Shown here piece after piece: positions 25,314 through 26,597 of a DNA stretch of 64,000 nucleotides. The translations under genes and the position numbers were made by a program. Positions within the stretch are counted from its first letter, which is position 1; every line of letters starts with the position of its first letter. The notes beneath the pieces are model-generated. The model saw only the letters and a program-made list of their open reading frames with translations. It did not search any database and was not told the DNA's origin. Source of the stretch: a virus; the IMG/VR virus record IMGVR_UViG_3300030061_003724, positions 17,319 through 81,318 of that record. One strand, given 5' to 3'.

Positions 25314-26597
25314 TTAATTACATACTCTTTTACCACCTACTGTTGTAGTTGTACAAGGAGTTGATTTAATTGTTACTGTGTTTACTAGTGGGTTTCCACT
25401 TTGTTTTGCTGGGTTAGTAGCCCATTCTGTTGTATATTTCCAACTATTATCGTCAGAATATATTGTTCCATCCATAGGTGCACCTGATTGATTCCAATAT
25501 ACACAATGCATTTGTCCATTAAAATAATTATAAGTCATTCTAAATTGACCATTTGTAGGAACTGGTTTTATTCCTGTTGGAGGGTTTAATCCTGGGATAA
25601 TAATAAAATCCGAACCTGAATTTGCATGGGAATTAGATTCAACATCTGCTTTACCTCCATTTGCTGGAATAACCCAAGTTTGATCTTTTCTATCAACACC
25701 CCAAGTTGCTTTAACTGTCATGTCTTGGTCTGTATCGTTAATAAATGTTACTCTTACTGTAACAGGATCTGATTCTAATTTTTCTACTACACTTTCTGCT
25801 GTTACTCTTACATTTGAGATAGTATATTCTGATCCACCTTTACATAAATCAGACCAACTATTACAATTAGGGTCACTATAATTATATAAATTATCAGGAT
25901 TAGGTGAAAATCCTTGCCATAATGAAGCAACAACTTTATATCCTTTTTCCATGTTTTCTTTTAAACCATCTAAGCTAGTTAATCCACTTCCTGGACCTGC
26001 TTCATTATTTTTAAAATCATATACTACTACACTATTATCTCCTTGAACATAAGTAGTTGTCATATTAGTATAATCATCATTAAATTCAGTTACAATATCA
26101 AATGGTAATGAAGGATCTATTTTACTTGCATCTACAATACCAGTACCAGTTGTTCCAGTAAAACAAGAAGTATCTCCTCCTAAAAATGCCCATTGATAGT
26201 TTTGAGTTTTATTTATGTGTATTGTTGCCTGAGTAGCTACATTTCCATTAGTTTCTAAAAAATCTATTTCATCACAACAGTTTGTACAACCATCACCAGA
26301 ATCACAATATTCTGTTTCATTCATAACTAAATAAAAAGTTGCATTAACAAACTTTTGACCTGCTAATTTTGAAATATCTACTGTTGCTGAGATTTTAGAA
26401 ATATTTTTATATCCTTGAGCAGAACGAACTCTACCCGGATTAAAAAATACCTTATCCTCTCCAATTACAGGAGCACCTTGATCACATTTTTGATTGAAGT
26501 CAAGATTAAAAGTAGGGGTAAATTCTTGTACTGAAACTTCCGAATTATTACATCCTATAAAAATAAGAGATAATAAAATAATTAAATAATTTTTCAT
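25314..26597 (-). CDS. Lipoprotein with a GH7-like (clan GH-B) glycoside hydrolase domain and an unknown C-terminal beta domain
   Basis: Lipobox FIG-C; TVDISKL..NATFYLVM, YCD, CCDEIDFLETN (ExDxxE), IDPSLPFDIVTEF, GYKVVASLW, ISNVRV in GH7 order. Confidence 0.7.
   Translation of the reverse strand: MKNYLIILLSLIFIGCNNSEVSVQEFTPTFNLDFNQKCDQGAPVIGEDKVFFNPGRVRSAQGYKNISKISATVDISKLAGQKFVNATFYLVMNETEYCDSGDGCTNCCDEIDFLETNGNVATQATIHINKTQNYQWAFLGGDTSCFTGTTGTGIVDASKIDPSLPFDIVTEFNDDYTNMTTTYVQGDNSVVVYDFKNNEAGPGSGLTSLDGLKENMEKGYKVVASLWQGFSPNPDNLYNYSDPNCNSWSDLCKGGSEYTISNVRVTAESVVEKLESDPVTVRVTFINDTDQDMTVKATWGVDRKDQTWVIPANGGKADVESNSHANSGSDFIIIPGLNPPTGIKPVPTNGQFRMTYNYFNGQMHCVYWNQSGAPMDGTIYSDDNSWKYTTEWATNPAKQSGNPLVNTVTIKSTPCTTTTVGGKRVCN

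Follow-up and report, generated by a model that had tools for sequence, protein, structure and literature searches.

A phage gene between nrdB and nrdA is predicted to encode a miniature GH7-type glycanase lipoprotein

We analysed a 64,000-nucleotide stretch of viral DNA (the window; positions 17,319 to 81,318 of IMG/VR record IMGVR_UViG_3300030061_003724), which is part of an 81-kb linear virus record that is about 50% complete. All long open reading frames (ORFs) of the window lie on the minus strand. One of them, located between an nrdB-like and an nrdA-like gene, encodes a 427-amino acid protein (P0001, 100% identity to virus record G000) that, judging from its sequence, is very probably an active glycanase lipoprotein related to glycoside hydrolase family 7 (GH7). 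The parts of the gene that bear on this assignment are as follows.

25314..26597, minus strand: whole gene for the 427-amino acid lipoprotein P0001, stop codon included (ORF list and translation)
25788..26534, minus strand: miniature GH7-type catalytic domain, residues about 22-270, a clan GH-B beta-jelly roll (structural model, VIA-align, Foldseek, profile)
26253..26270, minus strand: catalytic motif E110-I-D112-F-L-E115, with predicted nucleophile, helper Asp and acid/base; found in 23 of 23 homologues and aligned to N-E-L-D-I-W-E of 8POF
26301..26309, minus strand: GH7 hallmark YCD block, Y97-C98-D99; invariant and aligned to GYCDA of 8POF
26550..26597, minus strand: signal peptide and lipobox, residues 1-16 (M-K-N-Y, hydrophobic run, F-I-G-C16), read from the sequence

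A phmmer search with P0001 returned a single match among all PDB chains, 8POF chain A (E = 1.7e-5), and a profile of 23 homologues found the same entry at E = 3e-12 as the only significant PDB sequence match. 8POF is RsSymEG1, a GH7 endoglucanase of 321 amino acids; it comes from a protist that lives in symbiosis with the termite Reticulitermes speratus, and its depositors call it 'a unique form of smaller GH7 endoglucanases'. The match spans 165 of about 250 domain positions. A preliminary description of the gene, made from the sequence, had listed six GH7-like blocks and an intact E-x-D-x-x-E triad, and both observations are borne out. HMMER aligns five of the blocks to 8POF residue by residue (TVD..NATFYLV, YCDS, CCDEIDFLETN, IDPSLPFDIVTEF and MEKGYKVVASLW), and the sixth (SN..V) reappears in the consensus of GH7-positive relatives. 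E110, D112 and E115 are invariant in all 23 homologues, at least 80 of the 82 far relatives also have them, and the motif is retained in the viral, near and far clades. The YCD block was found in 81 of the 82 far relatives. Also invariant in the close family are Y89, Y97-C98-D99, C108, N117, Q123 and H127, with W227 nearly so; these conserved auxiliary residues recur in the far clade that is positive for the Pfam GH7 model, and those typical of GH7 (the Tyr before YCD, YCD, the His after the motif and the Trp of SLW) are present and aligned to 8POF. The domain is much shorter than fungal GH7, with loops missing, as had also been described: it comprises about 250 amino acids, compared with 321 for 8POF and about 370-440 for the fungal enzymes.

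Searching 1.84 billion representative proteins with the family profile gave 327 proteins at E ≤ 1e-3, with values down to 5e-27 for Pfam-GH7-positive proteins in that library. The Pfam GH7 model (PF00840) was matched by nine of ten individually tested distant matches and by 63 of a batch of 103 distant relatives (up to 3e-35), and the GH16 model (PF00722) by none of the 103, in agreement with the earlier view that the protein is not an ordinary GH16. The Pfam check suggested at that time had a mixed outcome. Direct scans were blank on both sides, with neither GH7 nor GH16 matching P0001 at E ≤ 10 and neither PF00840 nor PF00722 matching the 23 homologues at E ≤ 1, whereas GH7 was reached by way of 8POF and the PF00840-positive relatives. 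PF00840 has a curated gathering cut-off of 27 bits, which P0001 does not reach; a six-frame PF00840 search of the virus record gave no match, and a PHROGs scan of P0001 returned nothing useful. Because the Pfam GH7 model misses all 23 close homologues, we regard them as a divergent branch. By these sequence comparisons the similarity to GH7 is far beyond chance, and the data support assignment of the catalytic domain as a GH7-related, loop-poor glycanase of clan GH-B in a divergent viral branch below the Pfam threshold.

The AlphaFold2 model of the domain has a predicted local distance difference test score (pLDDT) of about 88-98 over residues 22-270. With Foldseek, GH7 chains occupy ranks 1-26 (E of 4e-10 to 1e-7 for canonical GH7 structures) and the first GH16 appears at rank 27. 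In a VIA-align comparison with 48,161 representative structures, 8POF was again the best match (Z 17.1, root-mean-square deviation 3.5, 224 amino acids, 23% identity), followed by the GH16 enzyme VvEG16 (5DZG; Z 16.7, 182 amino acids, 16% identity), Cel7B (6SU8; Z 16.3, 226 amino acids, 23% identity), Cel7B/2RFW (Z 15.9) and a long series of GH16 enzymes at Z 13-15 with 10-17% identity. The closest structure in these model-based comparisons is thus a GH7 enzyme rather than an ordinary GH16. The fold is that of clan GH-B, and the sequence lies on the GH7 side of the clan. The suggestion of a GH7/GH16 intermediate fails, since every sequence link is to GH7 and none to GH16; the reading as a GH7/GH16 hybrid is rejected.

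The phage domain and RsSymEG1 are both short, loop-poor GH7 forms with a collinear series of blocks (YCD, C-x-E-x-D-x-x-E-x-N, T-x-H, PF..V..F and SLW). Of the two, the phage domain is the smaller by about 70 amino acids and falls below the Pfam GH7 threshold, and the phage protein differs further in being a phage-encoded, bacterial-type lipoprotein fused to an unrelated beta-domain. Canonical GH7 enzymes (Cel7B 6SU8, H. insolens EGI, T. reesei Cel7A 1CEL) share the jelly roll, the ExDxxE strand and the disulphide beside that strand, but they have about 370-440 amino acids with long loops that form a cleft or tunnel, are eukaryotic, secreted and often equipped with a CBM1, and gave no direct PDB sequence match with the phage profile. 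Small GH7-like modules of marine protists were found with the phage-family profile at E of 1e-27 to 1e-7; most of them pass the Pfam GH7 model and their core residues are the same. Unlike the phage proteins they carry eukaryotic signal peptides and are not lipoproteins, and they often occur in tandem or in multi-domain proteins with ricin, PAN, CBM1 or dockerin domains. GH16 enzymes (VvEG16 5DZG, Zobellia LamA 4BOW) have the same clan, fold and ExDxxE chemistry (Z 14-16.7), but they show no sequence link, align over fewer residues at lower identity and do not contain the YCD, CC and SLW blocks.

GH7 was long regarded as fungal and later turned up in eukaryotes outside the fungi; prokaryotes have GH48 and further families for this function (PMC7571853). 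We found no report of GH7 in phages in the literature. A word-indexed protein search produced 22 homologues, each unnamed or 'hypothetical', a scan of IMG/VR yielded 24 viral loci on uncultured contigs, and BFVD contained one uncharacterised relative ('Virus NIOZ-UU157', 33% identity). Searching 50,697 GenBank phage records by tblastn with three family members and the C-domain family described below gave no match, and scanning 185,579 species genomes for the motif, an approach that could miss divergent bacterial copies, gave 72 pattern matches and no relative. The gene is present in marine/seawater DNA runs from several studies. The nearest non-viral relatives are from marine protist transcriptomes. 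The distant relatives with a named source come from protist transcriptomes, those of Biecheleria cincta (dinoflagellate), Scyphosphaera apsteinii (haptophyte), Mucochytrium quahogii (labyrinthulomycete) and Pirum gemmata (ichthyosporean), and further ones come from the MMETSP and MERC catalogues. A dinoflagellate cellulase that resembles termite-symbiont enzymes probably serves cell division (PMC7571853). An unrooted FastTree tree was built from 118 domains. The viral rows are all on the same side of a branch with support 89, within a starred group that also contains the dinoflagellate sequence P0059; the Pfam-positive protist-like sequences make up a clade of their own with 73 rows. The profile relatives, the fold and the tree support the proposal of a prokaryotic-viral branch of an otherwise eukaryotic family. 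The phylogeny proposed along with it separates the viral rows from the 73-row clade but, being unrooted, does not give the direction of transfer.

One family member, at 7671-8765 of L007 (IMGVR GVMAG-S-ERX556045-73), is on a giant-virus-type contig and has a 110-amino acid non-signal N-terminal extension in place of the lipoprotein signal. Judged from their N-termini, the contig also encodes a 2208-amino acid protein, a dihydrofolate reductase-like gene and a topoisomerase-like gene. Because this contig carries a member, the family appears to occur in viruses of both prokaryotes and eukaryotes.

The N-terminus of P0001 reads as a type-II signal peptide with the lipobox F-I-G-C16. Its identification as a lipoprotein is upheld by the family: the position of the lipobox Cys is kept in most homologues, both in the alignment and at the viral loci, and distinct lipobox N-termini are present in 29 members. 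Weak matches to PF08139 were obtained for two members. Anchoring of the protein in the membrane of the infected cell is plausible on this reading. For surface exposure, Bacteroidetes lipoproteins require an export signal close behind the Cys, two acidic residues that follow a polar or basic one; it has been defined experimentally as C-X-K-(D/E)2, SDDDD or SDDFE, and lipoproteins that face the periplasm are without it (PMC5080379). We scored two adjacent acidic residues (D/E) at positions +2 to +6 after the Cys as an export signal. Mature P0001 starts with C-N-N-S-E-V and has no such pair; only one of the 29 distinct N-termini of the glycanase family does, and none of 42 lipoproteins related to its C-terminal domain (module 2). 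In contrast, the window's own 198-amino acid lipoprotein begins with C-E-K-D-E-D. Because the export signal is absent from the family, the glycanase is predicted to face the periplasm if the hosts are Bacteroidetes, and the cell-surface role originally envisaged (foraging on algal glycans, or removal of receptor or capsule) is weakened.

In the GH7-like ORFs of five loci (L016, L019, L020, L022 and L023), what is left of the lipobox region reads K-K-L-F-G-C or K-K-L-F-R-R, and a charged, amphipathic-looking stretch replaces the hydrophobic core. These copies may have lost export by the usual route.

The second module of P0001 corresponds to the following features.

25317..25784, minus strand: C-terminal accessory beta-domain, residues 272-427, homologous to stand-alone phage lipoproteins of ~165-178 amino acids
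25316..25790, minus strand: 475-nucleotide block that is present or absent between near-identical phages (long and short form), from DNA alignment with L004 and L003 and from contig joints

The beta-rich domain of ~150 amino acids that the preliminary description had placed after the catalytic domain is present and comprises 156 all-beta residues (272-427), but it is not an orphan, since stand-alone phage lipoproteins form a family that includes it. Among homologues of similar length it occurs only in a 96% identical twin (P0002) and a 60% identical relative (P0004), and a region search with the C-domain among similar-length proteins recovered only the twin, at 97%. By tblastn, a homologue was located at L010:4690-5199, directly downstream of the glycanase gene, and both L010 and L011 encode a 30%-identical stand-alone lipoprotein of 170 amino acids directly after that gene. 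Used as the query, the stand-alone protein retrieved 51 stand-alone lipoproteins of about 165-178 amino acids, many of them from Tara or other marine sources; these were recovered only with a stand-alone member as query. The C-domain of the window is 31-37% identical to 30 stand-alone proteins, with many invariant positions. Because stand-alone homologues adjoin the glycanase gene, the window protein appears to unite in one chain two proteins whose genes lie side by side in other phages.

The C-domain is also subject to presence/absence variation. The L004 phage, which is 98% identical to the window in the catalytic domain and 94-95% identical in the proteins on either side, lacks exactly one block of 475 nucleotides (25316-25790), and its ORF stops three codons past the catalytic domain; L003 retains the first three linker codons and then stops. 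The joint 25315->25791 was found in public contigs of DNA runs X5 and X9, which are from different studies, and a long-form contig is also present in X5. Long and short gene forms therefore both occur in seawater DNA. In RNA libraries, an 844-nucleotide contig of a 2014 metatranscriptome crosses the junction of the two modules, and those of an oligo-dT library extend over most of it. Joints that bypass the gene entirely (25306->26666 and 25266->26665) have sides of 28-31 letters with 90% likeness and were not used, because they possibly come from other phages with adjacent nrd genes. Differences in contig depth served only to note that both forms exist.

A model of the C-domain built from a new alignment reached a pLDDT of 67 and a predicted template modelling score of 0.68. 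At that model confidence, the top Foldseek matches were the aegerolysins OlyA and PlyA (E 4e-4, template modelling score about 0.45), and VIA placed OlyA and RahU at the top (Z 8.2 over 116-118 amino acids), with Cry34Ab1 at Z 7.4. A language-model look-up pointed weakly (score 0.88) to a cluster that contains aegerolysins. Aegerolysins (ostreolysin A, RahU, Cry34Ab1) are similar to the C-domain in size and, on this model, would share its beta-sandwich, with 116-118 of about 136 amino acids aligned, but there is no sequence similarity: the C-domain has no Pfam match, hence none to PF06355, and its family profile found nothing in the PDB at E ≤ 10. The models thus weakly suggest an aegerolysin-like and possibly membrane-binding domain, which we treat as a lead only.

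The gene is flanked on both sides by genes for ribonucleotide reductase subunits.

26623..27609, minus strand: nrdB-like gene, immediately upstream (PF00268 at 1.5e-61)
23594..25306, minus strand: nrdA-like gene, immediately downstream (PF02867 at 1e-98)

The P0001 gene lies 25 nucleotides after the former and 7 nucleotides before the latter. Window NrdA shares 69% identity with its counterpart in Flavobacterium phage vB_FspM_immuto, a cultured 160-kb Baltic myovirus, and the gene order SSB-RecA-exonuclease-DnaB-nrdB-nrdA is common to both; in immuto, nrdB and nrdA are separated by 9 nucleotides only. Because the nrd genes of immuto are adjacent and in the same order, we read the P0001 gene as cargo that has entered the nrd operon in a phage of the immuto type, which agrees with the location already described and, on this comparison of sequences, makes it a mobile cargo gene within the nrdB-nrdA operon. 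The host is probably a member of the Flavobacteriia. Because the intergenic gaps are short, the glycanase gene is probably co-transcribed with the nrd genes; a promoter and terminator consensus scan of 23400-29200 did no better than shuffled sequence.

Gene order around the family varies between phages. The glycanase gene is situated between nrdB and nrdA in L003 and L004, as in the window, and the order is nrdB-nrdA-glycanase in L008-L013. In L005 and L008-L013, small membrane proteins that are holin-like are encoded within 0-3 genes after the glycanase gene. Beyond them are genes for an Amidase_3 endolysin in L009 and L012 (PF01520 at 8e-23), a PG_binding_1+Amidase_2 endolysin in L013, and a conserved 202-amino acid protein of no known family in L005, L008, L010 and L011. 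The resulting link to lysis genes is suggestive, and these loci are not independent lineages. The most constant neighbour of the glycanase gene encodes 'lipo224' (L012:9443-10114), a 224-amino acid lipoprotein of no known family. In ten loci, which represent at least two phage lineages, it stands beside the glycanase or is fused to it. Relatives were found in L006, L009-L011, L014, L015, L017, L021 and L024, with fusion to the glycanase C-terminus in L009, L010 and L011; lipo224 is absent from the window. Weak leads to its identity (Epx4 at E 0.023; fimbrillin-like clusters at 0.90-0.92) were dropped.

Taken together, the protein is probably an exported, lipid-anchored, two-module GH7-type glycanase that is carried as cargo in the nrd operon of a probable Flavobacteriia phage and may have a periplasm-facing role in the envelope. 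The precursor would be processed by signal peptidase II and then acylated at C16. Module 1 (residues about 22-270) would by homology cleave a beta-linked glycan with retention, with E110 as the nucleophile, E115 as the acid/base and D112 as the helper, and the -1/-2 subsites would consist of Y89, Y97, D99, H127 and W227. The presence of three conserved Cys pairs is compatible with an oxidising compartment. Because the loops that form the cellobiohydrolase tunnel are absent, the enzyme is expected to be endo-acting in an open cleft. Module 2 (residues 272-427) would be an accessory beta-sandwich in the same compartment as the glycanase, because in other phages it is a lipoprotein in its own right, with its gene next to that of the glycanase. 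Because there is no surface-export signal and the neighbours in sister phages are holin-like and endolysin genes, the enzyme would face the periplasm and act on a glycan of the host envelope or on one in transit through it, in envelope remodelling or egress rather than surface feeding. That this periplasmic role is tied to lysis or egress is a tentative suggestion, to which we give somewhat less than an even chance.

Several observations weigh against this picture. The Pfam GH7 model recognises neither P0001 (E ≤ 10) nor any of the 23 homologues (E ≤ 1), and GH16 is nearly equal in fold score (VvEG16 at Z 16.7, a margin of <1), such that fold alone does not discriminate. The export-signal rule derives from three species and may not hold for the host, which is itself assigned indirectly. 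In the window the neighbouring genes serve nucleotide metabolism and the candidate lysis genes are about 3 kb away, and in L014-L026 lysis genes are not near the gene, which confines the adjacency to one phage lineage. The aegerolysin-like fold comes from a model with a pLDDT of 67 and borderline scores, a level at which chance arrangements are possible. Finally, contigs of two RNA libraries carry the gene, and contigs from RNA libraries do not prove transcription.

The best-surviving alternative, which we nonetheless consider fairly unlikely, is an auxiliary metabolic gene for feeding. The lipoprotein would sit on the surface of the cell or of vesicles and cut environmental beta-glucans (laminarin, mixed-linkage glucan, or algal and dinoflagellate cellulose), providing the host with more sugar during infection. 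The characterised relatives (8POF, Cel7A/B) are all beta-glucanases that degrade polysaccharide, the nearest non-viral relatives are marine protists, and in the window the gene accompanies the metabolic nrd genes, with which it would be co-transcribed; moreover, one sister phage (L013) encodes a true GH16, and marine Flavobacteriia use lipoprotein glycanases in Sus-like systems (PMC5080379). However, 28 of the 29 family N-termini are without the acidic export signal, there is neither a SusC/D-like partner nor a transporter nearby, and the conserved neighbours are small lipoproteins and lysis-type genes, not genes of sugar catabolism.

A non-catalytic, lectin-like module that masks or binds a receptor glycan, for instance in superinfection exclusion, is very unlikely. 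Phage lipoproteins that block superinfection exist, such as Llp of T5, and concanavalin-like lectins and carbohydrate-binding modules do appear lower in the structural list (Z 11-12.7), but E110, D112 and E115 as well as the auxiliary Tyr, Asp, His and Trp residues are invariant across deeply diverged viral and protist clades, which matches purifying selection on catalysis.

An ordinary GH16 of the laminarinase/lichenase type, resembling GH7 through ExDxxE and the clan fold, is close to refuted: many GH16 structures are found at Z 13-16.7, GH16 enzymes are common in Flavobacteriia and present in a sister phage, and the active-site string of P0001 is also compatible with what we take to be the GH16 signature, but PF00722 is absent from P0001, the 23 homologues and the 103 distant relatives (63 of which have PF00840), the sole PDB sequence match is a GH7, GH7 structures align over 224-226 amino acids at 23% identity compared with about 180 at 10-17%, and the GH7-specific YCD, CC-E-x-D, H127 and SLW blocks are present.

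Two other candidates were rejected. A virion structural protein does not agree with a signal peptide and lipobox or with placement in the replication module, and a spanin would be far smaller, is not enzymatic and would have a paired partner, which is not seen here.

The points added by this analysis are the membership of the C-domain in a stand-alone lipoprotein family, the 475-nucleotide indel, the lysis-gene neighbours and the missing export signal. An extended version of the periplasm-facing reading is unlikely: a new, virus-borne glycoside hydrolase lineage, derived from or sister to protist GH7, that would cut a host glycan in the periplasm together with partner lipoproteins, one of them aegerolysin-like and membrane-binding, for lysis, egress or superinfection control. 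Candidate targets would be peptidoglycan strands, nascent capsule or exopolysaccharide, and periplasmic glucan. A minimal GH7 core of ~250 amino acids, missed by Pfam and unannotated, circulates as a lipoprotein in many uncultured aquatic phages, which widens the known range of the family beyond the textbook 'eukaryote-only' and raises the question of gene flow between protists and phages. The domain could serve enzymology as a natural 'minimal GH7' scaffold, and the long/short polymorphism together with the fused and separate partners offers natural experiments on the accessory module. The gene may also point to an unrecognised envelope-directed function in phages of the Flavobacteriia, the main degraders of marine algal polysaccharides.

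Nearly all window genes after nrdA are predicted to be envelope-targeted, which counts in favour of the periplasmic or envelope reading of the glycanase. They encode a 411-amino acid signal-peptide protein, a secreted thioredoxin-fold protein, two proteins with a transmembrane segment plus coiled coil, two small transmembrane proteins, the 198-amino acid lipoprotein and a DUF5675 protein. The 411-amino acid protein (22304-23539, minus strand) is of no known family, and its tail looks like an outer-membrane barrel on reading of the sequence. The thioredoxin-fold protein (PF00085; 141 amino acids; 21592-22017, minus strand) has only one Cys in its active-site region. L003 and L005 likewise have both proteins after nrdA. 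The gene for a 107-amino acid transmembrane and coiled-coil protein (20633-20956, minus strand), which has a paralogue at 22021-22302, overlaps that for the 198-amino acid lipoprotein (20056-20652, minus strand) by 20 nucleotides. This layout is spanin-pair-like, but the lipoprotein is large and seemingly bound for the surface, since its C-E-K-D-E-D start agrees well with the surface-export signal of Bacteroidetes. The DUF5675 protein (157 amino acids; PF18925 at 1.3e-26; phrog_1501, function unknown; 19580-20053, minus strand) takes the position that the amidase endolysin or the conserved 202-amino acid protein has in sister phages. It has an H-T-G-N...G-C string, presumably reminiscent of YkuD-type L,D-peptidases, and could be the endolysin of the window phage. 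The true GH16 of the L013 phage (L013:11329-12021; PF00722 at 8.8e-15) has no signal peptide and is encoded a few genes past the GH7-like lipoprotein and the endolysin. Two adjacent tRNA genes, Gln(TTG) and Ala(TGC), are located at 15218-15370 on the minus strand of the window.

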